A DNA stretch of 64,000 bases from Okamejei kenojei (taxonomy: Eukaryota). The stretch spans positions 13,578,001 to 13,642,000 of the forward strand of contig CM069155.1 in the NCBI GenBank assembly GCA_035221665.1, read 5' to 3'. The notes below the pieces were generated by a model, which saw only the letters and a list, made by a program, of their open reading frames with translations, was not told the DNA's origin and made no database searches. Position 1 is the stretch's first letter, and every line of letters begins with the position of its first letter. Of the stretch, positions 2,541 to 54,144 are shown one piece after another. The position numbers were made by a program, and so were the translations under genes.

Positions 2541-3264
2541 AATCATCCTTCATGCTGCTAAGCTTGAGTGTTGATTAAAGATGTGTTTGAATCATGTACT
2601 GTCTGGAAGTCATTTACACACAGGTTCACCGCTTTAAAGAAATTCCCCCTCAATTCCATTTTAAAGGTATGTAATTTTATTCTGATTCTGTGCTCTCCGG
2701 TCCTAGACTCTCTTATTCCTGGAAACATCTTTTCCACATCTGCTCTAGCTAGACCTTTCATTATCTGGTAGGTTTCAATAAGATTCATCCCCCTTCTCCC
2801 TCCACCCCTTTCCTCCCCCCCCCCCCCCCCCCCCCCGCTGTTTCAAGAGCAGAATTCTTCAGATATCTTGGCCGTTATTCCTTCAACAAAGCCCCAAGAA
2901 AAATTACAGAGATATTTCTCAACAGCTTGACCTTTTCCCTGTGAGATTTCAGTGTAACATTATTGTACAATTTTATTTTTCAATGTGTTTCACAAACTGA
3001 AATACTACATGGCCACATTGCTGGAGAAAGATGGCTGAAGTTGTCCAAAATCACCTTCAGTGTTGTGGTTGCCCATGAGGAGTTGAAACAGATTTGCTTT
3101 GAAGATCTATACAGTGTGGGGAGAAGTTGTTGTTTTGCTTGATGCTAGGGTGATGGTACAACCAGTTACTTGCAAAAGCAGAGGAGAAATAAACGACCTG
3201 CCAGGCTTCAAACTGCTGAAGTGTTCAGGCAGGTTGGTAAAGAGTCAACTTGGCAAAATAGGAC

Positions 3265-3630
3265 TAGACAATAGGTGCAGGAGTAGGCCATTCGGCCCTT
3301 CGAGCCAGCACCGCCATTCAATGTGATCATGGCTGATCATCCCCAATCAGTACCCCATTCCTGCCTTCTCCCCATATCCCGACTCTGCTATCTTTAAGAG
3401 CCCTATCTAGCTCTCTTGAAAGTATCCAGAGAACCGCCCTCTGAGGCAGAGAATTCCACAGACTCACCACTCTCTGTGAAAAAAAGTGTTTGCTCATCTG
3501 TTCGAAATGACTTACCTCTTATTCTTAAACTGTGGCCCCTGGTTCTGGACACCTCCCCACATCGGGGACATGTTTCCTGTCTCTAGCAAGTCCAAACCCT
3601 TAACAATCTTATATATTTCAATAAGATATA
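3265..3630 (-). mobile_element. CR1-type LINE 3' end fragment
   Basis: IEIYKIVKGLDLLETGNMSP C-terminal ORF2 motif plus typical 3' UTR. Confidence 0.8.
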
Positions 3631-13500: not shown

Positions 13501-16500
13501 CCATATACTACTGATCACAGGCCTCCAGTCAGAATAACACCCCTCCACCACTGTCCTCCATTTTCTACGGCCAAGCCAAATTTGAAACCAGTTTACCAAC
13601 TCACTTCGGATCACAATTTTCTTTCCTTCTCCCAAGGGAAAAAAAAATGTCATTGGATTACCTCATCAGAAATACGTTGATGCCAAAAATCTGCACGAAT
13701 TTGAACTTCATATCCTCAAATATTATGACTGAATTAGTTACAAATTCTTCTGCTTTAAAGTTGAAACATCTTAGCTTTAAGGTGAAGTAGATTTTTTGGT
13801 GACATACTATGGAGTATTGAGTACAGTTCTAGTCACCTCACTATAGGAAGGATGTGGAGACTTTGGAGAGGGTGCAGAAGAGGTTCTCCAAAACAAAGTC
13901 TGGTTTGTGTGTATTAGCTATAAAGAGAGATTAACATAGAACAGTACAGCACAGGAACAGGAACATCGGCCCACACCGTCTGTGCAGATCATGATGCAAA
14001 TTTAAACTGTACATTTTCCTGCACACGGTCCATATCCTCCATTTCCTGCCTGTTCTAGTGTCAGTCTCAATTACTCAAACTTTGTTATTCTATCTGCTTC
14101 CACCCCTACCCCTGGCAGCACCATCCAAGCACCACTCCGTAAAATAATGCAATACATGTCTGTGCATTATCTTCTGTAAACAGGCTAAACCCTAACAAAT
14201 GAGACTTCATTGGTGTAACTAATTTGAGTTACCTTTGGCACTGCCTCCTCAGCTTCCTCTTCATACTCCACTTCCTCTTTCTGTCGCAGAACACGAGGGA
14301 TTGTAAATGGTCTGTGGAAAGCAAGAGAGTGGATTATGGTAAATGAACAGATGATTCCAGCCTCTTTTTTTGTGAATTTAGTTGTGAATGCTAGAGTTTT
14401 AATCTACATGTCCACGTTTAAAATAATAAAATGCAGAGTCTTACAGCACAGAAACGAGCCCATCGACCCAACTCATCCATTCTAACCCAGATGCCCCATC
14501 TAGGCTAGTCCCATTTGATCGCGTTTGGCCCATATTCCCCTAACCCTTTCCTATCCATGTACCTGTTCAAGTGTCTTTTAAAATGCTGTTATAGTATTTG
14601 CCTCAACTATCTCCTCTGGCAGCTCATTCCATTTACCCACTACCCTGTGAGTTAAAAGTTTGTCCCCTCATGTTTGTATTAAATCTATCCTCTCTCGAAA
14701 TATGTCCTCTTTTTTTTTTGATTCTCCAAACCTGGGTAAAAGACTGCATTCACCCCATCAATTCCCCTCATGATTTTAGCCTGTCCTAGCCTGCCCAAAC
14801 TCTCCCTGTAGCACAACCCTTCAAGTTCTGGCAACATCCTTGTTAATCTTATCTAGGGAAATATGGCAATATGATTTCTGCAAATATAATGAGCAAAGTG
14901 CAACATGTAAGGCATGATTAGTCAGTTTACAGATTACATTAAATTAGGTGCATCATAGACAGTGAGGATGGCTATCAAGAATTACAAAGGGATCTTTGTA
15001 ATCAAATGGACCAAGGAATGCTAAATAGAGTTTAATTCAGATAAGCGTGAAATGTTGCATTTTGGGAAGTCAAACCAGGGCAGGACCTTCATGGTGAACA
15101 GTAGGGCCCTGGGGAGTTTTGTTGAGCAGAGGGATCTAGCAGTGCAAGTGCACAATTCCCTGAAAGTGACATTGCAGGTAGATAGGGTGATTAATGCATG
15201 TTTTGGCATGCTGGTCTTTATAAGTCAGGGAATCGTATAGAAGTTGGGCTGTTATCTTACAGTTGCAAAAGACATTGACAATATTCCGAGTCAATGTTAA
15301 AAAGACGTTGACTTGGAATATTGTATTCAGTTTTGATCATCTTGCTATAGGCAAGATGCTTTAACCTGAAAAAATTGCAGAGATGGTTTACATGGATGGT
15401 GTCAGGACACAGCGTCTGGCTATTGGGAAAGGTTGAGCTGGCTAAAACTTTACTCATTGGCGAGTAGGAGGCTGAGGGGCAATCTTATATAGTGTACAAA
15501 ATCATGAGGGGAATAGATAAGGTGAATTAAATAACCTTTTGCTCAGGGTAGGGGAAAAAAGAACTAGAGAACATAGGTTTACGGTGAGAGGGGAAAGATT
15601 CAATAGGAACCCGAGATGCAACCTTTTCCACACAAAGAGCGGTAGGGACATGGAACAAACTGCCATGTAGAAGGTGAGGCAGGTACAATATCAGCATTGA
15701 AAGGATATTTGGACAGGAACATAGATCGGAAAGATTTAGGGGGATATGGGTTGGGCTCTTTGCACACCTCATCAATTGTGACAATGCTTGTATGCTATAA
15801 CCGTTGTGCAAAGTGAAGCCAAACAGTATTGTTGGCAACAACATGTTCCTCCTCAAAGAACTTAATGCATTCCATGCTCACTTTGAACAGGTCAATTGAA
15901 TGATACCCACAATAGAGAATATGAACATATGAACACACTGAAGGGAAATTCTATTGATATTCTAATTAGTTCATCCTGCATAATCTTAAATAAAGTACAT
16001 CATAGGCTGTGGGCCGAGGAGCTTTTTCGTTCAAGTTCGTGACCCAACTTACAGAACTACCTGAGTTTTTAACATATTGTGTAATATTATGGATCTAGTG
16101 TACAATTAAAATCACCTCCAATTATTAGATTATGTTGTGTTAATTCCGGAATATTATTAAATACCTTCTTAAAAAACAATGGGCTATCAAAATTTGGTCC
16201 ATATACATTAACAAAAATCATTTTTTGTGTATTTAATTCTCCAATGACGATAATATATCTTCCATCTTTATCAGTTATAGTTGATGTATGTTTAAATAAA
16301 ATAGCTTTACGAAATAATATTGCTGCGCCTCTTGATTTATGTGTAAAAGAAGAGTGATACATTTTATCTATCCATTTAGCTTTCAATCTATGTTCAGCAT
16401 CTTTTTTTAGATGTGTTTCTTGAATAAAAATCACATCAGCTTTGTTTGCCTTTAAATGTGCAAAAACTTTCCCTCTCTTAATCGGTTCGTTAATACCTTT

Positions 16501-19500
16501 AACGTTCCAACTACAAAACGTTATTCCCTCATTCCCTATATTTATTTTTGGGTCCTGCATCTTTTGACTATGGAGGTCTGCAATAGAGTCTATGGTTCAG
16601 CACATCAGACCCGACCTTACACCCGAACATCGAATAGATGAATTTTAAGTCTCGTACATGTCTCTCACGTATATATCTCAACTGATCCAATATATAACTC
16701 CATTCAAATTGAAGAAAACCATAATAGATTATATGAGAAAAGAACAAAGGATAGATTAAGAGGTTAGTAATGTGCAAAAAGAGAGGAAAAACTACATCTA
16801 GAGTTGTTGCAGTTAGTGCTAGCCATACTAGCATGGCTAACCATCTACCGACTTCCATCGTTGATGTTGGTAACTTAACCAGCTCCCAGGTTTTTGGAAT
16901 TATTATTCCATAAAATTATTTTACCGGGGGTGTAGTATTAGAGAAAAAAAAGGAAAGGGAAAAAAGAGGGATAAAAATAGAAACTTATTTAGTAAAGGCA
17001 TATTTAACTTATAACAATTAAAGGTATAGAAATACATTTAAAACTTATTTAAACATCTAATTATTATAAACTATTATAAAGGTATAGAAATACAATTATT
17101 TAAGACTTATTTAAACATCTCATTAAACATGAGGAACAAAAAAAAAAGATAAAGTACATATTTAGAACTTAATTAAAAATCTATCAATTTTAAATCGAAA
17201 GAACAAAATAAAGACTTATTTAGTAAAGGCATATTTAACTTATAACAATTAAAGGTATAGAAATACGATTATTTGAGACTTATTTAAACATCTAATTATT
17301 ATAAACAATTATAAAGGTATAGAAATACAATTATTTAAGACTTATTTAAACATCTCATTATTATAAACATGAGGAACAAAAAAAAAAGATAAAGTACATA
17401 TTTAGAACTTAATTAAAAATCTATCAATTTTAAATCGAAAGAACAAAATAAAGACTTATTTAGTAAAGGCATATTTAACTTATAACAATTAAAGGTATAG
17501 AAATACGATTATTTGAGACTTATTTAAACATCTAATTATTATAAACAATTATAAAGGTATAGAAATACAATTATTTAAGACTTATTTAAACATCTAATTA
17601 TTATAAACAAGAGGAACAAAAAAAGGAAAGATATCAAAGTACACATTTAGAACTTAATTAAAAAATCTAACAGAAAGAACACAAAAAAAGGATAAAAAGA
17701 GAAAAGAAAAAAAAACCCAATCCATCCTAGAAAAAAAAGACAGAAATTAAGAATGAAAATTGCTGACAAAAAAGAAAAATCTCCAAAAGAAATCAATCCC
17801 TAATTTTAACTCTATTCATTCCAACATAGAAAATCATTAATTATTAGTAATTAGTAATTAATATTAATTAGTAAAAATAGTGTTAGTAGAAATACCGCAT
17901 TGTGTCTGTAATGTATATTAGTTATTTATATTAGTAGTGTAATGATATTAATTATTAGTATCCAAGTAAAGTTTTCCGATCCACTTCTTTCTCCGACTTC
18001 CATCCAACGTTGCCCAGTTCAGTCCAGTCCTGCATTGTTTTGTGGAGTCTTGCGAAGTCTTGGAGATTCTTGTGGCATTCTTAAGAGTCAATATATTTGA
18101 AAGTAGCTGCTTCTCAGGTCTGGATCTGACGCGCAAAGATTGCTGCTTCTGGGTTGGAAAAGAAATGCTCCTCGTTATTGAAGGTAACTCTTAGAGTAGC
18201 TGGATAATTCAGACCGTATTTCAAATGTGGCACTCCTCTCATAAGACTCTTAGCCTCATTGAATGCTTTCCGTTTCCTGGAAACTTCTGCAGGATAATCT
18301 TGGTAGATACTGATCCTGTGACCATCAAATTCCAGGTTTCTATTTCTCGAGGATCTCCGCATTATCTCATCCAAGACAAAGTCGTATTGTAGCTTTATGA
18401 TCATTTGTCTTGGAGGGGCATTTGCTCTTGTCTGACGTCTTCTGACTCTGTGAGCACGGGCTAATAAAGGCTTTTGTTCCAGAGATAAGACTTGTTATAA
18501 TAAGTTCGCAGTAAATTCTCGAGGATCTTCATCTTTCTCTCGTCCTTCAGGAATACCTGCAATTCTTAGGTTTTGTCTTCTCTGGCGACCTTCTAGCTCA
18601 GTACATTTCTCAGATATTTTAGTCAGTAAGTTCGTTAGACGTTCGTTTTCTATAATCAACTTAGCTGTAGTCGTAGCACTGGTAGCAGCTAGTTCTTCAA
18701 GGCCTTTTATACCGACCGTCTGTTGTTCCAGTACCTCTTCCATAGGCTTCAGCCTTTTTTCAAAGTCATTTTTGACCTTTTCAATTTTATTATCCATCTC
18801 CTTTCTCATTTCGTTCATCATTTCTGTAATTTCTTTCTTCAGATCTGCCGATATTTTCTTGGTCTTATTATTAATATTTGAATTTGTTTCCTGTTGGAAT
18901 TCTTTCATTTGTGTATTCATCTGGTTTATTTGCGTATTCATCTGGTTTATTTCTTCCTTTAAGCCAGCAATTTCGCGAGAAATGAAACTTTTCAATTCTT
19001 CACTTTCCGCTTTTTTCCCTGTTCTTTTCGATACATCTTCCTGGGATGAGACCCTACTTGAGTCCGAGGCTTCAGTTGGGCCTTCTGCCGGTTTCTGCCG
19101 GGTTGGTCGCCTTTTCTGTTTATCGGTAGGGCTGCGTGTTGTAGCCATAACTAGTCGCGCGCCTGATGACGTCACTCACAACAATCGGTGCAGAAACGGC
19201 AGGCAGCAAGCAGCAGGCAGCAGGTAGGTCCGTTAATCCACCGTTTTTTCCCGTTTTTTTCACAGAGCTGGCTGGCGTTGTCCTCTAGCCCTCCATAGCG
19301 CCACCGGAAGTCCCATTTGATTTATCTTTATAAAGTTATGATGTGAACTGTTAAATTAAAATGATAAATAACAAATGTAGAGCTAGGGTTAGGGTCAGGG
19401 TCAGTCTGTCGGTAGGTCGATGGATGCTGTGGAGGATCGGTCGATCTGTCGGGCCGTTGGGTCGTGAGAGTGGTTGACCAGGCCGGGCCGTCGGTGGGTG

Positions 19501-22500
19501 GTGAGAGTGGTCGGACGGCCAGTGGGTGGTGAGAGCGGCCGGCCGCCAGTGGGTGCTGCGAGTGGTCAGACGGCCAGTGGGTGCTGCGAGTGGTCGCTGG
19601 CTGCTGTTGCAGCGAGCGAGCGGGCGGGCAGTCCGACGGAGCCAGCGCTATGGTGGTGCTGAAGGCGGCCCGGGCAGCGTGCAGGGCAGTGCTGTTCCCC
19701 ACCATCATCACCACGATGATAGAGAAGGGCATGCTGACCGATGTGGACGCGCCGTGGGGCTACACGTACGGAGCCCGCAGCTGGTCCCAAAGCGGCTCCA
19801 GCTCCAGCCTTGGGCAGCTTTGGAAGGGGCGCGAGTTAGGGTTAGGCATTTTCCTGTCAGTGGAAGAAGCCTTAGCCTTCCCGCAGCCTGGCACTACCCC
19901 AGTCCTACAATGGCCGTGACCCCTACTCTGCACACTGGCAGTAAATGGGGGAACCCAGAGGAACTGCCCTCACCCATTAATTAGGCTGGTTCAGGAGCCG
20001 GACCTATGCGGCAGTCTCATTCAAAAAACACTCACAATTATATTAGTTGTATTATTTTTATATAAAATAATTATACATAATTATGTATGATCACAGTCAT
20101 ATTCACGTCATGGTGTAATATGGACATTGGACACTAGAAGGCGCTTACTTTTTCTATCTCATTTTCTTATTAATTTAATTAATTAATGTGCAACTTTTGG
20201 CACTGACGAGTTATGATTACCTTCTCAATTATATTTTATCTAAATTTGTACAAAATTTCATGTAGTTCCGAGACATGGGTCATGAACATTGATTTCTAGA
20301 CACATTTTTGATGCTCGGCCCACAGCCTATTGGTGATGCACGCTGCTAAATAATTTCAACGTGTAATCTTGAAAACCACAATCAAATATTCTAACAGTTT
20401 AGTAACATGCAATCATTTTTATATTAAAAGACTGACAGTCAGAAATACATTTGGTAACGTTAAAAATAAACGTATATTTCTCTATAATATATCAATCATA
20501 TTTATTTTGATAAACCGCCATTCATCCTACCTTCTGCTGATTAGTTCGTCATCAGAATCCACATCATTTGCTCCAATTTGATTAACATCATATGTGTCGT
20601 CATATTCATCATCATAGTCATCCCCATAAAACTGGTCTTCATCTACTGGTACATTCTCCACGACTATTCTGTAGGCATTATATCTTTCCCTTTGTTGTGT
20701 AATGTGAGTCTTATCATCAAGTAGGGTTTTTCCGTCTTCTCCTTTTCTGTAAAGTTAAGAAAAATATGATATTTTCTAAAAACTGGCCATGTATTTTGTA
20801 TTTCATAAATCCAGTAACATTGTGAAATGTGCGTGAAAAAAATTTAGAAGTAGCTTGCAAGCTATTGGGCAGCAGTGATCTGTCCTTCAGAGACATGGAT
20901 TGCTTACAATGTGCACCTCAAAACACTGGAGACAAACCACCAATGCTGTCCTCACAAGATCCTCCACATCCATTTGCAGTTTAAGCAGACAAATCTCAGT
21001 AGAGACAAAGTGCTGGAGCAACTCAGCAGTCAGGCAGTATCTCTGGAGAACATGAATAAGTGACGTTTCGGGTCAGGACTCTTCTGCACCCTGTGCTCCA
21101 CATGGACTTGCAAACATTTTTCTCCTCGCTATCCCCTTCCACATACATTTTTTCTTCTAGCTTCACAATTTGCAACTCTGTCTCACACCTTTAGTATTTT
21201 CATCTCTGGCTTTGGACCAACTATCTGAACTCTGTCCAACTATCCAAACCACCATTCCCCCATTCTCACCTAGATCTGCCGATCACTTTTCAGGCTTTGC
21301 CCACCCCTCTCTTCCAGCTTCCCCTACCACCACAATCAGTCTGAAGAAAAGTCCCAACCCAAAATGTCACCTATGCATGTTCTCCAGAGATGCTGCATGT
21401 TCCGCTAAGTTACTCCAGCACTTTGTGTCTTTTTAAAAAATAAACCAGGACCTGCAGATCTTTGTTTTTACAGACCAACATCAGTATCCTCTTGTCCTCT
21501 CCAGGTCAACCTTACCTCAGTGTTCTTGCCGTCCCAATATCAGACTACAAACAAGCACAGAACTCTCAACTTCATCACAGTAAGAGATTACAATTGGACA
21601 GTGGAAATGCTTCACAGAAATTCGCAGTCTCCATCTCTGACAGCCTGCGGACATCCATACCCATGACAAAAGTAAGCAGCATCTGGGATGGCACTGAAAA
21701 GCTGGAGTTTGTGTACTAGAAGCACACAGAAACCCAATGCAGATAATAGAAGAGCTGCATCACTTCAAAACCTGATCATCCACCTATCCAATCAGACATT
21801 TTTTGCACTATGTTTAGAAGAGTCTGAAGTTCTACAAATGGTCTCATTAGTTACTCAGAAATCTCAAAATGTGAGTGGAGACAAACCATTCTCGATCGCG
21901 ATCACTGTCTAAGAACCATCTCAATACCATTTACAATTTTGGACACCTTTATAAAATATGTTTTCATGTATCTGCTAAAAGGAGAATAATCTGGCTTTTA
22001 CAAGATCACTCATTCTTGGACGATTTTAGCAAATCTCCAAACGTTCTTTACCACCTTTCTAGTGTCTGATGTTCAGAATTGAACATAATAGGTGGAACTT
22101 AACAAGCGAATGTTAACCATTGATTACTTTTATTTTCCACAGATCAATGTTTAAGTAATATGCCTACAGCTCTGGAACCACATGAAAATGCATGGGACCG
22201 TTTCACTTTGCAAAGAGGCAAAAAACAAATATATATTTAATATAAATAATTGAAGGATTACAGAAAGAGGAGCAAATGAATTTTTCAACCAGAGTGCAGT
22301 TGGAGTATGGTCCACATATTCTTAAAGAATGTCGAGGCAGAAACTTTCAGTTTAACCAAGTCCTTAGATGTGAAGTTGAAGAAGTGTAATCCGCCTCAGT
22401 ATGCACCAGACACTGCTTGGTGGGATGAGGCTTTGTAGCTCTTTTACAAACAACATGTGGCCAAATATATGGAGAGGAAGGGTGTGGAGGGATATTGGCT

Positions 22501-34500: not shown

Positions 34501-37500
34501 TGTCATTTTCTTAACTGTGAATGACCACAACAAGCTTTCTAAAAATATAATTAAATTATATGTAAATTAAAATATAAATTAAATTAGATTTGCTGCTTCC
34601 ACACCCATTTTCTAGTATAGGTTGAAGGCACTTGAAATTAATGATGTGATGAAACGTTTCAATAATTTTCTTCCTCGAGTGTGAAAGTCGCCTCCACAAA
34701 TCATTTTGCAATCTGGAGAAAAAGTAAAAAAAATCAAATGTTAACACTTTGGGAAATGAGGGGAATGGAAAGAGCATGGAAATGGCAGGGAGAGCAGGAT
34801 GGGTAATAAAATGATCTGAACTTGAATCAATTCTTCCTTTATACAATAAATCTGGACTACTATATCTAGGTTTCTATGACATGGTTGATAACAATATTTT
34901 CAATAATCTAAGAGTCTAAAAGTGTGGGTCAGTATACTAGTCTTAAGCACAAGGAGGCCACTGAAAAAGAAATGCGTATTTTCCTATTTCTCTGATTATA
35001 TCCTCTCTGTGAAGATGAATGCTGTTCCTGTGTGATTTAGATTCATTTAAAAAAACACTTCACAAATTGCTGCTACTCTTTATTCTTCGTAAATTAGCTG
35101 GCTATGTTGTGCTGGAAGTAAAAAATATTCAGACTTGGCAGCAGGGATGTTTGTTGGATAAGGGCTAAAGCAGGCTATTAGTGCGTAGTGGAAGTGGTTA
35201 GTACCTAAATAAATGTAGTATACTTGATCTGCATGTGTCTGCGCAACAGGATATTCCACTAGTCAGTACCATCTCTAATGTAAAATTAATCAAACCTTTA
35301 AACTTTAGAGATACAGCGCGGAAACAGGCCCTTCAGCCCACACCGACCAAAGGTCACCCCTTACACTAGCACTATCCCACACACTAGGGAAAATTTTCTT
35401 TTTTTTTTTACAGAAGCCAATTAACCTACAAATCTGCACGTCTTCGGAGTGTGAGAGAAAACCGGAGCACCCGGAGAAAACCCACACAGTCACAGGGAGA
35501 ACGTATAAACTCCGCATAGATAGCAGTCAGGATCGAGCCCGGGTCTCTGGCGCTGTAAGGCAGCAACTCTACCACTGCACCACCAAGAGAAAAGCAAATA
35601 AAATGAAATAACCAATTTACAGTCAAACCGATCAATACTGTAAGTTTACTTGGCGAATAGTAATAATCTATCACAGACATCTGATTAACATAAAATAAGG
35701 ATCAAAACATAATGTGCCCATAGTTACAGTGGCTTGCAAAAGTATTCATACCCCTTGAACTTTTCCACATTTTGTCACGTTACAACCACAAACGTAAATG
35801 TATTTTATTAGGATTTTATGTGATAGACCAACGCAAAGTGGCGCATAATTGTGAAGTAGAAGGAAAATGATACATTGTTTTCAAATCTTTTTACAAATAA
35901 AATATTGAAAAGTGTGGCATGCAAAAGTATTCAGCCCCCTTTACTCTGATTCCCCTAAATAAAATCCAGTGCAATCAATTGCCTTCAGAAGTCACCTAAT
36001 TAGAAAATAGAGTCCACTTGTGTGTAATCTAATCTCAGTATCAATACAGCTGTTCTGTGAAGGCCTCAGAGGTTTTTTAGAAAACATTAGTGAACAAACA
36101 ATGTTCCTTGGGCATCATGAAGCCCAAGGAACACACCAGACAGGTCAGGGATAAAGTTGTGGAGATGTTTAAAGCAGGGTTAGGTTATTAAAAAATATCC
36201 CAAGCTTTGAACATCTCATGGAGCACTGTTCAATCCATCATCCGAAAATGGAAAGAGTATGGCATAACTGCAAACCTACCAAGACATGGCCGTCCACCAA
36301 AACTGACAGGCCGGGCCAGGAGAGCATTGATCAGAGAAGCAGCCAAGAGGCCCATGGTAACTCTGGAGGAGCTGCAGAGATCCACAGCTCAGGTGGGAGA
36401 TTCTGTCCACAGGACAACTATTAGTCGTGCACTCCACAAATCGGGGGTTTATGGAAGAGTGGCAAGAAGAAAGCCATTGTTGAAACAAAGCCATAAGAAG
36501 TCCCGTTTGCAGTTTGCCACAAGCCATGTGGGGGACACAGCAAACATGTGGAGGAAGGTGCTCTGGTCTGATGAGACCAACATTGAAGTTTTTGGCATAA
36601 ATGCAAAACGCTATGTGTGGTGGAAAACTAACAGTGCACATCACCCCGAACACACTATCCCCACTGTGAAACATGGTGGTGGCAGCATCATGCTGTGGGG
36701 ATGCTTTTCTTTAGCAGGGACAGTGCTGGTCAGAGTTGATGGGAAGATGGATGGAGCCAAATACAGGGCAATCTTGGAAGAAAACCTGTTAGAGTCTGCA
36801 AAAGACTTGAGACTGGGGCGGAGGTTCACCTTCCAGCAGGACAACAACCCTAAACATACAGCCAGAGCTACAATGGAATGGTTTAGATCAAAGCATATTC
36901 ATGTGTTAGAATGGCCCAGTCAAAGTCCAGACCTAAATGCAATTGAGAATCTCTGGCAAGACTTGAAAATTGCTGTTCACAGACGCTCTCCATCCAATCC
37001 GACAGAGCTTGAGCTATTTTGCAAAGAAGAATGGGCAAAAATTTCAATCTCTAGATGTGCAAAGCTGGTAGAGACATACCCCAAAAGACTTACAGCTGTA
37101 ATTGCAGCGAAAGGTGGTTCTACAAAGTATTGACTCAGGGGGGCTGAATACTTTTGCACGCCACACTTTTCAGTTTTTTATTTGTAATAAAATTTGGAAA
37201 CCATGTATCATTTTCCTTCCACTTCACAATTATGCACCACTTTGTGTTGGTCTATCACATAAAATCCCAATAAAATACATTTGCGTTTGTGGTTGTAACG
37301 TGACAAAATGTGGTAAAGTTCAAGGGGTATGAATACCTTTGCAAGCCACTGTATATGTTGAAGTTGAACATCAAATTTTAGTTCACACTTCCAGCAGTAA
37401 TTCAAGTCACCAACAGTTCTCTTAGCCAAGTAAGACGGATATTTCTTTCAGATTGTGAGAGTAAAATATCCAGCCTGTTGATATAAATTTGGCACCGAAT

Positions 37501-40500
37501 TTCATAAAAATTAGAAAGTTGGGAAAATGTCAACCCTTCTAGCAGAAGGCCGAATAGTGGCTTAATAAAATTTAGATAGAGTAAATAGAAAAGAAAAGAT
37601 TCTGACGCAAACCCAAGAGACCTCAAATCCATCACTGAATAACTTACCCAATTTCTTCAAATCGCCTCTGTTTAATTGTGTTTTCTAGTTCAGGGATAAT
37701 TGCTTCATAAAACGAGGTCAATCTGCAAAAAAGGGAATTGTCAAAAAGATATTTCAATATATATTAATTTTTAATTATCTGCAATTGTGCAAAATTATAC
37801 TTAACTACTCATGCTTATGTTTGCCAATTAATATATTTTGCCGCTGCAATAAAACCAAATAATAAAAATTGACACTAGTTTTGCATCACAATGTATTGAT
37901 GTAATGTGTCATGTTTAATAGAAAATAGGTCTTCATCTGCAGTTTTTGTGGAATATTTTTTTTATTTCAAGTCTCACTTTCCCAAAGGAAGTTGGCATGG
38001 TCGAGTTTAAAATATATCATAAGCAATAGGGTCGTACAGTGGCGCAGCGGTAGAGCTACTCCCTTACAGCTCGAGACCTGGGTTCGATCCTGACTACGGG
38101 TGCTTATCTGTGCAGAGTTTGCACGTTCTCCCCATGACATGCGTGGGTTTTCTCAGCGATCTTCAGTTTCCCCCCACATTCTAGAAGACATGTAGGTTTG
38201 TAGGCTAATTGGCTTGGTATAATTGTAAATTGTTCCTAGTGTGCGTAGGATAGTGTTTATATGTGAGGATCGCTGGTCGGCGTGGACTCAGTAGGCACTG
38301 CATCTCCAAACTAAAACTAAACAATAGTGGAGCAAAACCTTTTCCATCTCATGCAGTGCTTTTTATATAATGGTCTGTGCCCGTACAGTGCACCGGTATC
38401 TCTAAAAAATTAAACACCCTTACTTTGTTCTCTGGCATTGTGACCCATGTGGATTAGTGGTGACTACTTGCACCTTTTGGTCCATAAAAACTTACTGATC
38501 CTAAATATGCCATTTCCCCAAAGGAAGATGGTACAGTCAAGTTGAAAATGTATTATAAATGATGGTGGACTTAGTGAGACGATGTGGATCATTTCACTTA
38601 AGTCCACCATTGTTTTTAAAAAAAAAACTTAGATAATGCACATAATTTTACACTTAATAGGAATTCTAGCAAAAGAACGAGAATAATTCATCAACTTGAT
38701 CAATTTAAATAAAAGGGGCAACGATTTGGAGCATGCAATAATGCAAAGAAAAAAGTGTAGATGCATAATAAAAACAGAAAATCCTAGAAACTCAGTAGCT
38801 AGGCAAACCTGTAGAGAACGAAAATCAAGAGTTAATATTTCAGATCACTGAACTTGATCGATGTTAGGAAAAAAGAAAAATTCTTGTGAATTACAGCCCA
38901 AAAAATGGCTGACATGGTGACATGCCAAACAACAATTGCAGGAAATGTGAAATTAAAGAGAATGTTGTAAACAGCCAGCCATCAGGTAGCATGCCTGGTG
39001 AGAGAAAACCCAAGATAATGTTGGAGGTTGTTGACCTGTAGACAGTTCTGAAACAAACTGGAAATGTTGGTTCTCCAAAATAGTTTGCACCATTCATTTG
39101 TTGCACAGTTAAGTGCCTGGTCAAAAGATAATGCGCTGTTCCCTGTGCTTCAGTTGGTTGTCACTGGAACAACGTGAAAGGCCAAAGGCAGAGAGATTAG
39201 AGTAGTAGTGATATGTAGTTTTAAGGTGACAGATGGGACATCTTTGTCGGTATGAACAGGTTGAGCTGAGGGGCCTGTTGCATGCTGTATGAAGCTATGA
39301 CAAAACAGGAAGTTCAACATCACCCTTGGCCAACACCTGGAAGGGAGTTTTAGGTCCCTGGATGATGTGAAGGAAATAAGCCAATGTGCACGTTGTACCT
39401 TCTACAGTCAAATTGGGAATGTGCCACAAGAAAAGGAGAGGGTGTTATTAGAAATGAAAGAGCAAAACAAGGAATCACCAAGTGAGTAATTATTGAGAGA
39501 TTCTGAAAGATGAAGGGAATACATGAGAGCTCACATTGGAGGACAAGGAGAAGAGGCAAATTGCGCAAAAAATGGTAGATACATGGTTGCGAGCCGTGTC
39601 AATCAGGTGGAACAAGAGCTACATTACGGACATGGAAGTCACCTCAGAGACACAAGTGTGGAAAAAGTAGTCTATCAAACCGTAGCCGCACAAACTGGAA
39701 ATGGAGTACTTATAGAATGCCTGGCAGAAAGAGGTACATCCCCTTCAGACATCAGCAGTATTAAAAAGAACCTCACCACCCTCTCTTAAAGAGCAACATT
39801 TGCATTACTCTTTTGATCTACACTATCACACACATTTCTTTGTCCTTTAAAATTCCCCATGTGTTCTAAATCTGATGAATGATCATCAACTTATAACTTT
39901 AATTTTGAAAATACTGCCTGACCCACTGAGTATTTATGGCATGTTCTGTTTTTATGTCCGATTTCCAACATCTGCAATCTTTTGCTGTTTGATTGCATGT
40001 ATGTGCATATTGTTTTAAATTAGGAAGGCATAGCTATTATTTAGATCACAATTCTAATACAATCGAAGTGGTAGACTAAAAAAACAATATGCCATATGCT
40101 TCCATACCTTTGTATATAATCATGCTTTTGGAATATCCGACTAGCTTCAGGAAAAATGTCCAAGAATGCAAACAGCGTAGTGCACGTATCACACAGGTAC
40201 AGCAAAATATCCTTAAACTCCTACAAGATAAAAATGTTGTCATAGGTGTAATAGGTGTAATACACTCATAGGTGTAATCTGACTAGCTTTACACACCAGG
40301 TAAAAATATATTTTCAAAATCCCTAAAAAAGGTCTCCTGACCCAGAGGATACTTGTTTAATAGATTACCACATTTACTGTGTGCAACTTAATAGTTACCC
40401 AAAGTAACAAGTGCAAGAATTCCGTTGTTTTATCAATAATTCTGAGGAACAGGCACTGAAATTACAGCATTTAATATTACAAATATTTTGTAACTGCTTT

Positions 40501-43500
40501 AAGACTTAACCAGAACTGATAAATGTTACATTTTCATTATTTTTCTTAATCAGTGTTTAGTTTGGCACATCAACTGTTCTGCCCAAGGCCATAAGAAACT
40601 GCAGAGAATTGTGAATGCAGCACAGTCCATCACATAAACAAGCTCTCCCCAGGACTCCATCTACACTTCACACTACCTTGGGAAAGAAGCCGACGTAATC
40701 AAGGACCACTCACATCCCAGTCACTCTCTTCTCCCCCTGCCTAGTTGGCCAGAAGATTCAAAAGTTTGAAAGCACGCACCACCAGATTCAAGAACAGTTT
40801 CTTCCCCGTTGTTGCCAAACTCTTGAACGGATTTCTCATATGCCAAGGCTGCATCCCCAATCTTACAACCTACTTAGTTACAGCACTCATACTTTTAGTT
40901 TAAACTGCACTTTCTTTGTAGCTGTAATGTTATATATTCTGCACTATTAACTTTCTCTTTTGTACTTCTAGACTGTGGGCCGAGGTGCTTTTTCGTTTCA
41001 TTTAGTGACCCAAATCACATATCTACCTGTATTTATAACATATTGTGTAAAAATGTTATAGAAATCATAACTGAAACAGTAACATGAAGAAGGTTAGGGT
41101 AAAGGTCAGGGCAGGGATTGGCAACCTAAGGCTCACGGGCCAGATACTGCCCCAACCCGAGCCTGCGGGCGTATTTTTTTTTCTGAGGACTTCCATGACG
41201 GAGCCGGTGCTATGGGGGTGCTGAAAGCGGCCCTGCGCGGAGCTGAGCAGCAGGGGGGAAAAGAGCTGGTCAGTCAGTCGGTCAGGCTGCCGGCCGGCTG
41301 GTGGGTGCAATGGGGGGGTCGGTCGGGCTGTCGGATAGCCGGTGGGTGCAATGAGGGGTCGGTCGGGCTGTCGGCCGGCTGGAGTTGCAGCGAGCGAGCA
41401 GGCGGACTGACAGAGCCGGCGATATGGAGGTGCTAAAGGCGGCCAGGGCGACGTGCCGGGCAGTGCTGCTCCCCACCATGTTGACATTCGGTGTAATCAT
41501 GGCATCGGGTGGGCTGCTGCTGATGATCTAGAAGGACATGTTGGCGCAAGTGGACGCGCTGAGTGGCTGGCTGAGGTGGATGCGCTGATTGGCTGGCCGA
41601 AGCGGACGCGCTGAGCGGCCATGCGTATGGAGCCCGCAGCCGGTCCCAAAGCGGCTCCAGCTCTAGCCGTGGGCAGCTCCGGAAGGGGGGCGAGTTAGGG
41701 TTAGGCATTTACTTCTCAGTGGAATATGTATTAGCCTTCCCCCAACCTGGCACTGCCCCAGTCCCACAATGGTGGTGACCCCCACTCTGCACACTGGCAG
41801 TCAGTGGGGTTAAGTAAACTGGGGAACAAACAGGATCTGCCCTCACCCATTGATTAGGTGGGTTCATGAGCTGGTGAAACCCGGGACCTCTGTGGCAGAC
41901 CTGTATTCAATGTTCCCACATACAGCTATATATTATTGAACTCAAGAGGGCGCTGTTACTTTTTCTAATTAGCTTAATTAATTAGTGTGCCACTTTTTGC
42001 ACTGATGAGTTGTGAATTCCTTATCAATGATGTTTTATCTAAATCTGTGCCAAATTTCAAGTAGATACCAGACATGGGTCACAAAAGTTAAAATCTAGAG
42101 ACCTTTTGGCACCTCGGCCCACAGCCTATACCTGTTATACTTGTGCATTGTATGATCTGCCTAGATAGCACGCAAAACAAAGTGTTTCGCAGTATTTCAG
42201 TACACATAACAGTAAAGTAATACTGATACTATTAATTTATCTAAACTATTTCTTATTGCTTATACAAAAGTTACATTCATTCATCTTTGTTAAAACATAC
42301 ACAAGAGATTCCATGCGAAAGATTGCTTTCCATTGACAAAGCTAAAACATATTTTAGTTATGATTTTTTTAATATCAATGATGTGAGCAATACCTGCAGA
42401 GGCATATCCATGGGTGAAACTTTGGTTTGGCCATCAATCTTTTGCGGGAAATTGGAATGATTTTCCCACATTAAGCCACACTTCTCACAGATGCTACTGT
42501 AAACCTTGACAATAATGAAAAAAGATAATAAATGTAGTTACTAATACATTTAGAAACTAAAAACATTAGTTTCCACTATTTTAAACATGACAAAGAATCA
42601 CTTTATGAATGACGCAGGGTCTTTCTTCTCGAGCTGGTCATTTAGTTTGTTATCTAATCTTAAGGACATGTGGTATAAATGTGAAGTGAATTTCAATGTT
42701 GAATGTGTAACACTAATGTCACAGTCTTGTATTCTGAGGCAATTTGGGCAGTTCTGGAATAAATCTCACATTGTTTCATAAATCAGCTTAATCTCCAATC
42801 TTGAACTCTATACCATGGCATCAGTTTAGCCCTTCCCATTATTAGAATGTCGAGAAGGAAACTGCTAATGCATGGTATACATTTCCCAGTGTCAACAACA
42901 ATGTTTCAGATTGTAAATCTCTGACTAGTCTGATCAGTACAAAAACAGTAAATGCATTTCTGTCCACATCAATGGAAAGAGAAAAAGAATAAAAGTTTCA
43001 GGTTGGGGACCCTTCATCAGAGGAAAAGTCTCCAACCTGAAACATGGACTATTTTCCACAGAGAGATGTACTCTGGCCTGCTGAGTATTTGCAGCATGTT
43101 CTGTACTTATTTTGGATTTACAGCATCGATAATTAGTTTGACTTTCATTGTTTTAGTACTCGCAGAGTCACGTTAGGAATGTCACAAGCTAGGTGTTAAA
43201 CATTTTCTGGATAAATCACAGCATTTGTAAGATGTTTATCTCAGAATTCACCAAAGGACTGTGTCAGAAGGTGGTAAAGTGGAAATTGATAGCTTCATTT
43301 CACACACAATGTTTATAGTTGGAAGAGAGGTGATATTCTTGCCTCCAGTCAGGGTTGGACATGAATCTTTCTCTCTTGGAAACAAAAATTCTCATCAACT
43401 TTCAGGAAATACATCTTTTTTTTACACTATTCTCAAATCAATCTGCATAAATGGAACATTTTCTGTTAAGATATTCCATATAGAAACGTTTGCGTGCATT

Positions 43501-46500
43501 TTGCCAACTGTAAATTTGCAACAACCTACCAGGATATGTACAAAATGTGTGGAGAAATATTTAAACTATACAGAAAGCACAATTTAGTTTCAATACCTGT
43601 AGGATCGTGGGAACTGTTTCATTCAGATCATTAAAATAATTTGGCTGTTGATTAAAAATATTCCCTGTGAATGAGAAAAAAAATTAAAGTCGAAAATAAA
43701 TATGATGAAAATCACTTTAAAGTTTCTTTTCAAAATAAGATCTACATTTCTTTCAAACTAACCAATCATCTTCTTAAGAAGAACAGTGTTTCCTTTTCCA
43801 AATATTATACACAAGTCAAAGATTTTTGGGATGTCAAAAAGAAAACCGTCATAGATAATTTCTCCAAAAACATTGGGTGTAATGAAGTGTTCCTAATGGA
43901 GATAAAAATCGATTAGAGAAAAAATATATATATATATTCATCTAAACCTACATGTATCAGCCCATCCTAAAAATGAGACAATAAAGCTAATCAGTTCTAT
44001 ATTTCTATGACAAATTAATCTTTACATAGCTTCAGTAGTGCAACTTCAAGTGGCAAAATATAATTAACATTAAAAATGTAGTGCTTGGTTTTGTTGCAGA
44101 TTGATTATAGACCACCCAAAGACAGACTACAGCTTAGTCAAATTTCTGTCCAAAGGTTTGCTCATACCTTTTAAATTGCATTCCTTCAACTTTTCTTCAC
44201 TTCAAAGTGATCGTCTCATATAAGAAATTATAGTTCTAGTAACACATGATTCCCCAACATAAGGTGGTACGTGCAGTTTTAATACAGCTCTAAATGTAAT
44301 TATGGAAGGCAAACTTGCTACTATTCTATATCTGACAGGATTTGAGCAACTAACTCTCCAGTTTTCTAACACCTCATACATAGCTATTGATAAAACAAGC
44401 ACCTTCACTAGTAGCTCATCAATATCCTCCCTAGACCAGGGATTTATCTACTATTATGTGTTTTAACACCACTGGTACCTCATCTTATGTAATGTGGATT
44501 CACTCCAAGACATCACTATTACAGTGGCTTGCAAAAGTTTTCCTACCCTTTGAACTTTTCCACATTTTGTCACGTTACAACCACAAACGTAAATGTATTT
44601 TATTGGGATTTTATGTGATAGACCAACACAAAGTGGCGCATAATTGGGAAGTGGAAGGAAAATGATACATGGTTTTCAAATTTTTTTACAAATAAAAAAC
44701 TGAAAAGTGTGGCCTGCAAAAGTACTCAGCCCCCTTTACTCTGATACCCCTAAATAAAATCTTGGGCAACTAATTGCCTTCAGAAGTCACCTAATTAGTA
44801 AATAATTACTAATCTAATCTCAGTATAAATACAGCTTTTCTGTGAAGGCCTCAGAGGTTTGTTAGAGAACATTAGTGAACAAACAGCATCATGAAGCCCA
44901 AGGAACACACCAGACAGGTCAGAGAGAGAGGGAATGCCAGGGCCCGAGGGTTGAGGGAGAGGTGGGAAGGGGAGGAGACAGCAAGGGTTAACAGAATTGA
45001 GAAAATTCAATGTTCAAGCCCAAAGGATGCAGACTCCCCAAGCGGAATATGAGGTGCTGTTCCTCCAACTTGCGCTGTTGCTCACTCTGGCCGTGGAGGA
45101 GGCCCAGGACCGAGAGGTCGGATACGGAATGGGAGGGGGAGTTGAAGTGCTGAGCCACCGGGAGGTCGGGTTGGTTAATGCGGACCGAGCGGAGGTGTTC
45201 GGCAAAACGATCGCCAAGCCTCCGCTTGGTCTCACCGAGCAGGGTTAGGTTATAAAAAAAATTTCAAGCTTTGAACATCTCACGGAGCACTGTTCAATCC
45301 ATCATCCGAAAATGGATAGAGTATGGCACAACTGCAAACCTACCAAGACATGGCCGTCCACCTAAAATGACAGGCCGGGCCAGGAGAGCATTGATCAGAG
45401 AAGCAGCTAAGAGACCCATGGTAACTCTGGAGGAGCTGCAGAGATCCACAGCTCAGGTGGGAGATTCTGTCCACAGGACAACTATTAGTCATGCACTCCA
45501 CAAATCGGGCCTTTATGGAAGAGTGGCAAGAAGAAAGCCATTATTGAAACAAAGCCATAAGAAGTCCCGTTTGCAGTTTGCCACAAGCCATGTGGGAGAC
45601 ACAGCAAACATGTGGAGGAAGGTGCTCTGGTCTGATGAGACCAAAATTGAAGGTTTTGGCCTAAATGCAAAACGCTATGTGTGGCGGAAAACTAACACTG
45701 CACTTCACCCTGAACACACCATCCCCACTGTGAAACATGGTGGTGGCAGCATCATGCTGTGGGGATGCTTTTCTTCAGCAGGGATAGGGAAGTTGGTCAG
45801 AGTTGATGGGAAGATGGATGGAGCCAAATACGGGGCAATCTTGGAAGAAAACCTGTTAGAGTCTGCAAAAGACTTGAGACTGGGGCGGAGGTTCACCTTC
45901 CAGCAGGATAACGACCCTAAACATACAGCCAGAGCTACAATGGAATGGTTTAGATCAAAGCATATTCATGTGTTAGAATGGCCCAGTCAAAGTCCAGACC
46001 TAAATCCAATTGAGAATCTCTGGCAAGACTTGAAAATTGCTGTTCACAGATGCTCTCCATCCAATCTGACTGAGCTTGAGCTATTTTGCAAAGAAGAATG
46101 GGCAAAAATTTCAGTCTCTAGATGTGCAAAGCTGGTAGAGACATACCCCAAAAGACTTGCAGCTGTAATTGCAGCAAAAGGTGGTTCTACAGAGTATTGA
46201 CTCAGGGGGGCAGAATACTTTTGCACGCTACACTGTTCAGTTTTTTATTTGTAATAAAATTTGGAAACCATGTATCATTTTCCTTCCACTTCACAATTAT
46301 GCACCACTTTGTGTTGGTCTATCACATAAAATCCCAATAAAATACATTTACGTTTGTGGTTGTAACGTGACAAAATGTGGAAAAGTTCAAGGGGTATGAA
46401 TACTTTTGCAAGCCATTGTAACTGTGCCGAGTTCCCTGGCCATTCTTATCCTTCTCCAGGTTGAGTACAACTAATATTACTGTACTGTCTGAAGAAGGGT

Positions 46501-50379: not shown

Positions 50380-51541
50380 ACCAAGATTAACAGCGACTTG
50401 TGTTGCTTAGGTGTTGAACACTGCACTTGATTATTTCTCTCAAACAGCATTGTAAATAAGACTAATTTGTTTCACTAATGATAATCAAAAAGATAAATCC
50501 AGACCTGGATACTGTGGTCAATTCTCCCTCTCAACTTCAGACAGTGATCAAAGAAAAATACATGCCTGACCAGTCTCATTTAAATGATGACACCTTAGAG
50601 AATATAGCTGTACTACACAGGGATGCCAACCTAGATTTTTGCACTGGAATGTGCTTCAAACCCGAAACTGTATTGCACATTAGCAAGTGCTTCAAGCAGA
50701 CAACTTCCTTTTTTTTGTACTCTGTCCCCTTTTGCCATTGGATACTATAAATTTAGATTATATTCGGAGCCATTCCGGTTAAAAAAATAATTGAAAAGCA
50801 CATAGGTGCGGATGCTAGAAATATGAAAAAAATAAAAAAATGCTGAAGATAAACAGGCTGGGAAGCATTTATGGAGAAAGAAACAAAAGTCAGGAAGAAT
50901 CTATGGAGAAAAAGGTTAATGATTCATATCAATTAATTTTTTATCAGAGCTGGTGGGGGGGGTGGACAAGCAACTTTCGAAATGCAGAAAGAGCATGGGA
51001 AAGAGAGAACTAGGAAATGTCGGTGATAGAGTGGTAACCAAGGTTATCCAGGAGTCAATTGCTTTCAATGTCCTACAGTTAACCAAAGCCAATTTGCTTG
51101 TAGGACTGTAAAGAGAGATGTATGAGCTCAGTTCAAGGGCATAGTAATTCTTCCCCATCCCAAATATTCCATGAGAAGGTGGGTAATTAACTGACTTCTT
51201 GAATCACTGCAGTCTTTTTATTGAAGATATTTCCATGATGCGTTTGGACAGGGAGTTAACTCAATATTTCCCTCTTCACAGACGATGCCCAATGTTGGAT
51301 ATTTCCAATATTCTTATCTATTTCAGATTATCAGCATTTTCTGTCTTCTGCATCTCACTGTTTCAGCATACTGTTTCCCCCTCCCTCTCTCTAATTGCCC
51401 ATTGACCTCATTTTATTTACAATACTCCAGTAAGCTCAGTTATGATTGATTACATGCATGCACTAAAACTACTGGACAATGTTGGTCTCAATTCTGCAAC
51501 AAACCTATTCTTCCCCAAGTAAAAATAAACCTCCTTTCTCA

Positions 51542-51923
51542 AGGGCCTGTCCCACTTTCCCGAGTTATTCACGAATTCTCTTGAGTTATTCACAAATTCT
51601 CCCGAGTTTTCAAACTCGCAGAATGTTCGTAACGGGTCCGTAGGAGTCCGTGCATATATATCGTAGCGGCTCGTTATGCCAGCTGTAGGTACTCGGAGCA
51701 TCAGGTGAGTCGGGACGTTTTTTCGGCCTGTTGAAAAATGTCCGCGAGTAAAAACGTAGCCCCGAGTACCTTTGGCTGCCATTACGAGCCGCTACAATAT
51801 ATCCTGGACTCCTACGGCCGCCTACGGACTCGTTACGAACATTCTGCGAGTTTGAAAACGCGGGAGAATTCGAGAACATCTCAGGAGAATTTGTGAATAA
51901 CTCGGGAAAGTGGGACAGGCCCT
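51542..51923. mobile_element. PIF/Harbinger-type MITE
   Basis: TIR AGGGCCTGTCCCACTTTCCCGAG, with imperfect inverted symmetry over more than 100 bp; 3-bp TCA duplication at 51539-51541 and 51924-51926. Confidence 0.88.
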
Positions 51924-54144
51924 TCACTTTTCCTGCCCTGATGAAGAGTTGTTGACAAGTAAACATTTTCTCACTACAGATACTGCCCAAGCAGTATTTT
52001 CTGTACGTTGTGTTTATCTTAAAGTATGTTTATACATATTTATAGTGACTGAGCCACATGGCAATGAGTCATGCAATTGGCTTTGTATGTTTTTAATTTT
52101 TGTATCAGGACACATGAAAATGTAACATCTCCCTATCAACCAACCAGAAAAGTCAGTATGGAATACAGAATGAAACAAGTGTCCAGTTCATCCTCTACAT
52201 TGCAAGATTATTTTTTCATTTTGCCGCAATTTATCTCACCAGTACAGTTGGGTGTGTGCCCAAGGATATGACAACTCCCTTCAATAAACTAACATTACGC
52301 CCATCCTACATGTCTTTCTTTGTGAAGCCAAGATTAGACAACAGTTGCTGAAAACTTATCAAACACAGGATACTTTATGATGTTCTGACTAGCTGATGAG
52401 TTCCATTATTTTATTTTATTATTACAGTAAATAAAACTTTCAGATGAATGATTAGAGAGAGCCAGGAGGTTAATAGTGCGGCTTTCAGAGGTTGTGGGAA
52501 GGAACTGCAGATGCTGGTTTAAACCGAAGATAAACACAAAATGCTGGAGTAACTCAGCGGGACAGGCAACATCTCTGGATAGAAGGAATGGGTGATGTTT
52601 CAGGTTGAGACCCTTCTTCAGACTGGCAGATGGGTCGCAACCCATCATTTTGTGTCTATCTTCGGTTTTCAGAGGTTACTGATTTATAGTTATACATGAG
52701 ATGGGATAATAAATGGTGAGTAAATGCAAAGCAATAACCATCTACAACAAGATGGAAGTACTTATCCTTGCCATTAAATTGTATGACTATCAATATCTTC
52801 AGTGTTATCACTGACCACCAAACTAACTGGTTTAACCGCATGAATGCTGTGTAGAAACAAGGAATAACAGATGCTCGTTATTACACAAAATGACTCAAAA
52901 TGCAGCAGACACTCAGCAAGTCAGTATCTCTGGAGAACCTGAAGATTAGAGGTGATGTTTCGGGTGATGTTTGAAAAAGGGCCACGACCCGAAGCATCAC
53001 CTATTGACGTTTCCCAAAGAAAGTGCTTGACCTGCTAAGTTACCCCAGTGATCTGTGTAGATAAATGCCTTGTAAGACCAGGTTAGTGGTTGGATATCCT
53101 GTAGCTTACCTCCTGACACCTCAAGGCCTTCCCATAATTCACACAGCATGAATCAGAAGCGTAATAAAATACTCTTCCCTTGCTTAGATGAGTACAGCAC
53201 CAACATCTATAAAGACTCAAAGCCAACCAGGATAAAGCAATCCACTTGATTTTCATTTCATCAAGCATTAAACATTAATTCCTGCAACTACCAGAGTATG
53301 GTGGCTGCAGTCTACAACATGCACAAAATGTACAATAGTCAGGCAATGATTCGGAGCTAGACCCTTAATCTGAACTGAGTAGACATAAGATAAACACAAG
53401 AAAGAGGTGATAAAGCAGTTCAAGAGCTGGAAAAAAAGGCTAATTCTTGGGAGCGGGCGTTGACTGGTGGATGGATTCAGATGAAAAGTCACAGAGCCGA
53501 GGAAATGATTGGAGGAGGTAACATGGAGCTGCAGTTGATGGAATCTAATGGGGAAGGAGGGTATGGGTCCAAATAAGGGACGTGGGATAGGCCGACAGGA
53601 ACAGTGGGGAGAAGAGGATCTGATAGAAGAATGGGCAGAGGGAGTGGGAGGGGAAAGTGGTTGAATGAGAAGGGGTGGGTGTTTGTTGTTACATGGAAAT
53701 CTGGGTAGAAGGGGGGAGAGAATGACTGAGGTAAGTTACCCAAAATGACAGAATTCTTTGTTCATGCCATCAGGTTGCAGACTATCCAGCTAGGTTTACA
53801 TTCAACCCACACTAAGATATTCTGAGGTCTTAGCTTCACCAATACAAATTCCACATGAAATATCTCAGAGCCAATATTTTGCTCACGATGGAATTGATTC
53901 CCTCTTTTGCTACTTTGCCTCCTTTTCACCTCTTCTTCCTGAATATTAAGTATCCTTAGATGTTCAGTTCCCATCCATGTTCACCCTGTAGCCATGTCTC
54001 TGTAACTGACACTGTGTGCACAGTTATTCTGCACTTTTGATAAATTGTCAGCACCCAATAATTAACATGCTACCTGGGGTTTATGGGCTTGAGTTGTAGG
54101 GAGAGATTAGATAGGCTGGTACATTTATCTTTCGAGCACAGGTT

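Follow-up and report, generated by a model that had tools for sequence, protein, structure and literature searches.

The window, a stretch of 64,000 nucleotides of DNA from the skate Okamejei kenojei, carries exons of ASCC2 on its minus strand, and two introns of this gene house related non-autonomous DNA transposons, here called E1 and E2 (Table 1). A 16-nt terminal inverted repeat (TIR) marks the ends of both elements and is found four times in the window (at 16003, 20314-20329, 40969 with one mismatch, and 42113-42128), as against 0.13 occurrences expected by chance. The two elements align with each other in four blocks of 80-83% identity, and the coordinates given for them in an initial annotation of this DNA prove exact. 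Because minus-strand ASCC2 exons flank both E1 and E2, the cargo that they share, derived from CHST14 (which we take to be the dermatan 4-O-sulfotransferase gene), lies antisense in the ASCC2 pre-mRNA, as that annotation had proposed.

Both elements are decayed. The left arm of E1 is mostly deleted, and its coding part, which covers the cytosolic tail, membrane anchor and stem of CHST14, is interrupted by a stop codon at 41529-41531 (codon 36) and contains an internal tandem duplication of ~56 nt at about 41568-41623. E2 is flanked by TCA and TTG, a decayed target duplication, shows the deletion motif of its subfamily at 19698-19720, and retains an open frame of 89 codons that is 11 anchor residues short. 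Of the L1 said to interrupt E2, presumably rightly named, only a 5' part survives, and at its site the left arm of E2 is short by about 270 nt. Other mobile sequences in the window include two elements in ASCC2 introns, presumably Tc1-like (35728-37353 and 44521-46419), that are 96% identical, with TIRs of about 215 bp and transposase frames of 313-314 codons, and a palindromic MITE-like element of 384 bp at 51541-51924.

Table 1. Features of the two CHST14-bearing elements and the neighbouring ASCC2 exons (window coordinates)
Feature	Position	Strand	Remarks
E1, non-autonomous Academ-like DNA transposon, subfamily A	40969..42128	+	full membrane anchor; hAT-like left end retained
E1 left 3-bp target duplication, TTC	40966..40968	.	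right copy TAC at 42129-42131, 1 mismatch
E1 left TIR	40969..40988	+	19/20 nt identical to right TIR, 42109-42128
E1 decayed TTAGGG/TCAGGG tract	41092..41111	+	last 8 nt, likely hAT-like target site
E1 left end of a separate, hAT-like transposon family	41112..41195	+	sits within the TTAGGG tract
E1 duplicated short CHST14 start-codon piece (about -17 to +22)	41196..41232	+	also present in L256
E1 captured CHST14 upstream sequence and 5' UTR (from about -200)	41233..41423	+	includes variable GC-rich repeat
E1 captured CHST14 exon-1 coding part, host +1 to about +233	41424..41693	+	
E1 right junction, cargo to TTAGGG repeats	41694..41705	+	4-nt overlap GAGT with L256-type sequence
E1 Academ-like right arm and right TIR	41706..42128	+	76-82% identity to full-length transposase element L096
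E2, non-autonomous Academ-like element, subfamily B	16003..20329	+	membrane anchor with 33-nt net deletion
5' remnant, presumably of an L1, within E2	16091..19313	-	ORF1-like and endonuclease-start frames
E2 TTAGGG/TCAGGG tract	19384..19404	+	abuts CHST14 5' UTR directly, without hAT-like end
E2 captured CHST14 5' UTR and exon-1 coding part	19405..19835	+	ATG at 19650
ASCC2 exon (aa 202-241)	42394..42513	-	upstream of E1 in host transcript; next exon 40083-40220
ASCC2 exon (aa 560-632)	20530..20748	-	upstream of E2 in host transcript; next exon 14224-14319

The identity of the cargo is established at both the protein and the DNA level. Seven of 32 candidate proteins match the frame that begins at 41424, and all seven are elasmobranch CHST14, the best being that of Leucoraja erinacea (85%, E 2.7e-12). 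The cores of E1 and E2 align to the host's own CHST14 locus over 367 nt (78% DNA identity, E 4e-83) and 241 nt (73%, E 6e-43), respectively. Thus the GC-rich core is, as the initial annotation held, the 5' UTR and N-terminal coding part of CHST14. The merged translation given there is a composite that neither element encodes, E1 stopping at codon 36 and E2 lacking 33 nt of the anchor. The host gene itself was located as one of nine genomic matches in a Sulfotransfer_2 search, with a TIR-less core match 12 kb away; it consists of two exons on the minus strand of G000:C1, the first of them within locus L010, and is 96-97% identical to L. erinacea CHST14. In the assembly, exon 1 loses its reading frame within a serine repeat (L010:1449-1452, G000:C1), likely through an assembly error because contigs from sequencing runs X1, X18 and X22 carry in-frame versions of the repeat. 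A divergent transcript is possible at L010:1951, where an X22 contig with a long loose end runs out of the region upstream of CHST14 on the opposite strand. A further sulfotransferase-domain match (L038, G000:C14:24696046-24696780) contains six stop codons and is probably a CHST-family pseudogene.

The transposon family to which E1 and E2 belong has TAG..CTA termini, TIRs of about 16-20 bp, and exact 3-bp target duplications in 23 of 27 and 33 of 40 complete elements in two samples. A TA target duplication, as for Tc1/mariner or ISL2EU, was rejected: the leading TA is part of the TIR and the 3-bp duplication lies outside it. Long broken frames are present in a 12.5-kb element with the ends of this family, and a search with one such frame found further close copies, four of the 11 fetched being complete elements of 7.1-7.7 kb, each of the four with both TIRs and exact 3-bp duplications. 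The best homologues of these transposase frames are proteins of 1430-1636 residues, and a TCR/CXC domain is found in all three homologues scanned, in one of them over the cut-off. The broken skate frames gave no match in a Pfam scan, and no intact transposase copy occurs among the copies examined. The fold predicted for the C-terminal part (pLDDT 89.9) resembles 5'-nucleases such as XRN1 (Z 10.7, rmsd 4.5 over 283 aligned residues), Exo1 (Z 8.9), and GEN1 and XPG (both Z 7.1), with a best Foldseek E of only 0.016.

Academ transposons have TAG..CTA termini and a protein of about 1500 amino acids that ends in a cysteine cluster, the AcademX transposase having an XPG/FEN-like nuclease domain in place of a helicase, and the skate family is like them in its ends and in a C-terminal cysteine cluster. 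Elements of the AcademX type make 3-4-bp target duplications and encode a nuclease (PMC10045372), and Academ is without a Pfam model (PMC5751038). Because 3-bp duplications and a nuclease-like fold match that description, the amplifying carrier may be called AcademX-like, a placement made from descriptions of the group. The left arms of cargo-bearing copies are only 74-78% identical to L096, so that the carrier is placed in this group and not in one mobilising subfamily of it.

Relationships among the arms do not simply mirror those of the cargo. In a tree built from 455 nt of arm sequence in 48 elements and rooted on a transposase copy (E1 and E2 contributing partial left arms, L161 mis-delimited, L091 and L132 left out), subfamily-B arms fall nearer the transposase elements and the subfamily with the hAT-like end is nested inside, inner supports being mostly 31-60. 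This order is the reverse of that read from the cargo, a conflict that arm exchange could have caused. L047, an element of 901 bp with a TTAGGG tract and no cargo, was considered as an ancestral empty acceptor and rejected, as it nests, with a bootstrap of 100, inside subfamily A; its lack of cargo is taken for a secondary loss.

CHST14-bearing copies are numerous. A DNA search of the genome with the CHST14 core gave 681 first-look candidates, of which 40 were scored. A probe for the full membrane anchor matched 50 times, the host gene included, and a probe for the deletion form, in which 33 nt of the anchor are absent and which defines the commonest subfamily, matched 347 times; all 20 fetched matches of the latter contain CHST14 sequence, the sample being drawn from its one-mismatch matches only. 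A junction probe matched 203 times, and controls gave 0 matches. Because the junction probe recovers only 6 of 20 sampled deletion-form loci and 23 of 46 known copies, the genome probably holds 400-700 copies, a probe-based estimate, and at least about 400. The high copy number that had been predicted is therefore real, while the hint from which it was drawn, two copies within 25 kb, is little informative, the two belonging to different subfamilies. The TAG..CTA end pattern of the family as a whole has 911 exact genome matches (control 0). Among 83 elements surveyed from the first 100 matches listed, 37 contain CHST14-derived sequence, 32 of them with coding part; 24 retain internal stretches of the transposase-type element, and no single element combines the two. 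That family copies without the fragment might exist had been named as a point against capture, and 46 of the 83 are indeed such copies; since they include transposase-type parents and deletion forms, capture is not refuted by them.

The hAT-like end found in E1 belongs to a separate family with 15-bp TIRs and TA-centred 8-bp target duplications, of which the genome holds 679 exact left ends. Nine of ten end pairs show an 8-bp duplication within two mismatches, and in a sample of 20 members 15 could be delimited, the duplication being exact in six and near-exact in five. An 8-bp target duplication and a short TIR starting with CA are features of hAT transposons that this family shows, and it is by its ends and duplications only that the first carrier would be classed as hAT-like; none of 30 hAT-domain loci (read ~1.5 kb to either side, of 150 listed from 1801 candidates) showed a hAT transposase between these ends. 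A search with the hAT-end module returned 30 loci, one of them fitting: L256, a free-standing element of 667 bp (G000:C4:33230926-33231592) with both hAT-like ends, an 8-bp duplication with one mismatch, and no Academ arms. Its cargo is the same piece of CHST14, continued through the end of the exon and the splice donor into about 45 nt of intron 1, with no exon 2, and a probe across the CHST14 exon end matches only L256 and the host gene. Because L256 runs through the splice donor into intron 1, the capture was made from DNA, and an RNA-mediated retrocopy is ruled out by the donor and intron sequence together with the absence of exon 2.

At +5, +31, +48, +145, +173, +174 and +219 L256 has the state of the majority of the Academ copies, and it has their gap near +190 and their duplicated start piece; at +211 it has the host base, and over 241 sites it differs from the majority of the copies at 31. 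An Academ arm is present in 75 of 76 cargo-bearing loci and the hAT-like left end in 19. The 8 nt that precede this end in the Academ copies are GGTTAGGG in 13 of 28, and most of the others are one or two changes off; since this octamer within the TTAGGG tract fits the TA-centred 8-bp target of the hAT-like family, it points to insertion there by a hAT-like element. No hAT-like ends are present in the 30 kb around host CHST14, and the two nearest members of the family, at 115 and 310 kb, carry CpG-island cargo other than CHST14. Overlaps of 4-5 nt, which may be fortuitous, are seen at two junctions (GAGT on the right, and GTCAG on the left against the host 5' UTR).

E1 and E2 are thus members of a decaying Academ-like family of several hundred copies, whose CHST14 cargo probably reached it by a relay in two steps. 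Judging from L256, a small hAT-like element would first have taken up some 500 bp of genomic DNA at the CHST14 CpG island, a stretch that begins near -200 and ends beyond the splice donor in intron 1; template switching in the course of repair is the probable mechanism. The resulting hAT-like CHST14 element would then have landed in a non-autonomous Academ element, within its TTAGGG tract, after which a deletion at the GAGT overlap may have taken the exon end, the piece of intron and the hAT-like right end. Academ transposase, presumably supplied in trans, would have amplified the product. The commonest subfamily likely arose afterwards, when further deletions took away the hAT-like left end and 33 nt of the anchor. 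That the family spread by transposition, as first supposed, is seen in copies on many contigs with distinct 3-bp target duplications. The same annotation had made the TAGGC-TIR element the capturer as well, a role that probably passes to the hAT-like family now that a free-standing hAT-like element is found to have the same cargo and more; Academ amplified the cargo but probably did not capture it. Against the relay it must be counted that L256 is a single surviving intermediate, and that in no Academ copy examined does the hAT-like CHST14 element survive whole between its two 8-bp duplications.

It is improbable that the Academ-like element copied CHST14 directly, with the hAT-like end arriving later and L256 arising separately, even if the hAT-like left end is absent from 57 of 76 cargo-bearing loci, the simple left junction overlaps the host 5' UTR by GTCAG, and copies with the hAT-like end are derived in the arm tree. 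The exon end, donor, intron piece and hAT-like right end of L256 occur in no Academ copy, and less of the upstream host sequence is left in the simple forms than in copies with the hAT-like end. Moreover, L256 has the derived changes of the copies and their duplicated start piece, which independent captures would not, so that a one-step capture is largely refuted by these shared derived states. The relay could instead have been completed by repair, the hAT-like CHST14 element having been copied into a broken Academ element rather than transposed and then trimmed by deletion. Such an event would account for the 4-nt overlap at the right junction and for the lack, in every Academ copy, of a right hAT-like end or second 8-bp duplication, and microhomology-mediated gap filling is given as the main route to single-copy Pack-TIRs by Tan et al. 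(PMC8277862). It too is unlikely: the left boundary coincides exactly with the hAT-like terminus, directly after a TA-centred octamer like the family's own duplications, an arrangement expected of transposition and not of repair.

Codon 2 of the cargo is Gly in 33 of 43 copies and in six non-skate proteins and Val in the host and L. erinacea, and codon 3 is Val in 39 of 45 copies and, among the proteins, only in skates. Because of these two states the capture would be placed on the skate stem, before the host split from Leucoraja. Copies differ from their own majority by 6-7% at non-CpG sites. The E1 insertion at 40969 is common to three other sequenced organisms: contigs of organisms C and F bridge its left junction, reaching 43 and 33 nt inside, and organism B has one contig that bridges the right junction (45 nt) and another on the left that reaches 30 nt, one nucleotide short under the bridging rule. 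Deletion-type joints and element alleles are also found in runs of B, C and F and of A, E and G.

Once amplified, the cargo is, as to coding potential, a neutral passenger. This reading follows from a pN/pS of 0.92 over 45 copies, from equal substitution rates at the three codon positions (0.058, 0.056 and 0.056), from loss of part of the anchor in the commonest subfamily, and from the absence of the splice donor from the amplified copies. It is very unlikely that the cargo has been kept for a function, whether as a membrane mini-protein of ~100 residues or as antisense or small RNA acting on CHST14. An ATG is kept in many copies, some frames of ~100 codons extend into the right arm, E1 and E2 are antisense in ASCC2 introns, and the majority sequence agrees with the host at all but 9 of 216 coding sites; yet individual copies are 12-14% different from host CHST14, stop codons interrupt the first 63 codons in 13 of 45, codon positions show no bias, and no chimeric protein is found among 32 candidates of 84-2000 residues, a weak search. 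At the 19 CpG sites of the host, 37% of copy cells are TG or CA, which points to germline methylation. Contigs of runs X19 and X22, presumed RNA, lie on the element or have element-type alleles; these runs are unstranded, and the contigs are possibly DNA or intronic. X22 is flagged as probably DNA, yet it includes a contig in which exons 1 and 2 of CHST14 are joined.

Non-autonomous TIR elements that capture GC-rich 5' gene pieces at the DNA level are familiar from plants as Pack-MULEs, and the CHST14 family is like them in this respect. Membership of that group was rejected, as the family has 3-bp duplications and TIRs of 16-20 bp, whereas in MULEs the duplications span 9-10 bp and the TIRs are long (PMC8277862). 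In animals, Tan et al. count 370 Pack-TIRs, with only four multicopy and none in the elephant shark (PMC8277862); neither 'Academ' nor CHST14 has a match in 12 of its text supplements. The multicopy examples described there include Pack-hAT-N8_XT of the frog, with the 5' UTR of CAPSL in three copies, and Ssk-FB4 of the fly, in four. The CHST14 family resembles both: TIR ends flank a 5' piece of a host gene, here non-TE sequence with its parent locus on G000:C1, and copies lie at unlinked sites on other chromosomes with distinct target duplications; the short overlaps seen at breakpoints may be a further likeness. L256 is itself a Pack-hAT-like element. In contrast to these published elements, the CHST14 family numbers about 400-700 copies, ~100-fold more, its carrier is Academ-like, and its cargo seems to have been handed from one superfamily to another; and whereas Ssk-FB4 makes a protein under selection, the CHST14 cargo decays neutrally. 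A parallel in scale is HelibatN3 of Myotis bats, in which a piece of NUBPL that runs from the promoter through the 5' UTR and first exon into intron 1 is present in about a thousand copies (PMC4224331). HelibatN3 is a rolling-circle Helitron and not a TIR element, and it keeps a splice donor and forms chimeric transcripts, unlike the amplified CHST14 copies, which have no donor.

Animal Pack-TIRs were thus already known, and what is new is the copy number, the Academ-like carrier and the hand-over between superfamilies. A literature search, made largely without subscription papers, found no description of host-gene cargo in Academ; nor did it find one of a CHST14-carrying family, Repbase and Dfam being outside it. 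In the published survey animal Pack-TIRs are almost always single-copy (PMC8277862), and their route of capture is still debated; a surviving intermediate that separates capture by one superfamily from spread by another makes the order of events testable by comparison of skate genomes. With a CpG-island first exon present in hundreds of methylation-marked copies, the genome would also offer a natural test of silencing spill-over to CHST14. At that gene, annotation and the mapping of reads can be led astray by the CHST14-like copies.

CHST14 is not the only cargo on these carriers. A CpG island that precedes exon 1 of NPRL2, with 1432 candidates in the genome, is borne by the hAT-like family, pieces of it being present in 12 of 20 sampled elements. 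This island (L108:1600-2100 on G000:C16, L219-L229 and L322-L341) includes the first exon of the divergent gene beside NPRL2, presumably CYB561D2. This island was considered as a cargo of Academ and rejected: none of its 11 top copies has Academ arms, and of 212 loci screened only L012 has it within such arms, nested there in a hAT-like element. The Academ copy L012 (2115-2665, G000:C9), itself a carrier of CHST14 sequence, houses an entire hAT-like NPRL2-island element in its right arm, so that two host gene starts are combined in a single element. In a further subfamily with Academ-like ends the cargo is another GC-rich sequence, exon-like and including a splice donor (L139:54-1920, L169, L170, L174, L178-L180, L188 and L190); this cargo has 2791 candidates, with Academ arms in 9 of 30 loci and a match in 2 of 20 hAT-like elements. 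A Pfam scan of two other cargoes gave nothing usable. One may speculate, with the chances against it, that skates harbour a recurring two-tier system in which the hAT-like family time and again lifts CpG-island first exons (CHST14, the NPRL2-adjacent island and a TDP2-like exon), Academ receives them by way of its telomere-like TTAGGG tract and carries them to hundreds of sites, and transposon-silencing small RNAs made from the copies act back on source genes such as CHST14. Another Academ-like copy, L073, has at 1630-3290 an insert of 1.7 kb; it contains a GC-rich block in duplicate, together with an ATG in good context and a site that resembles a splice donor.
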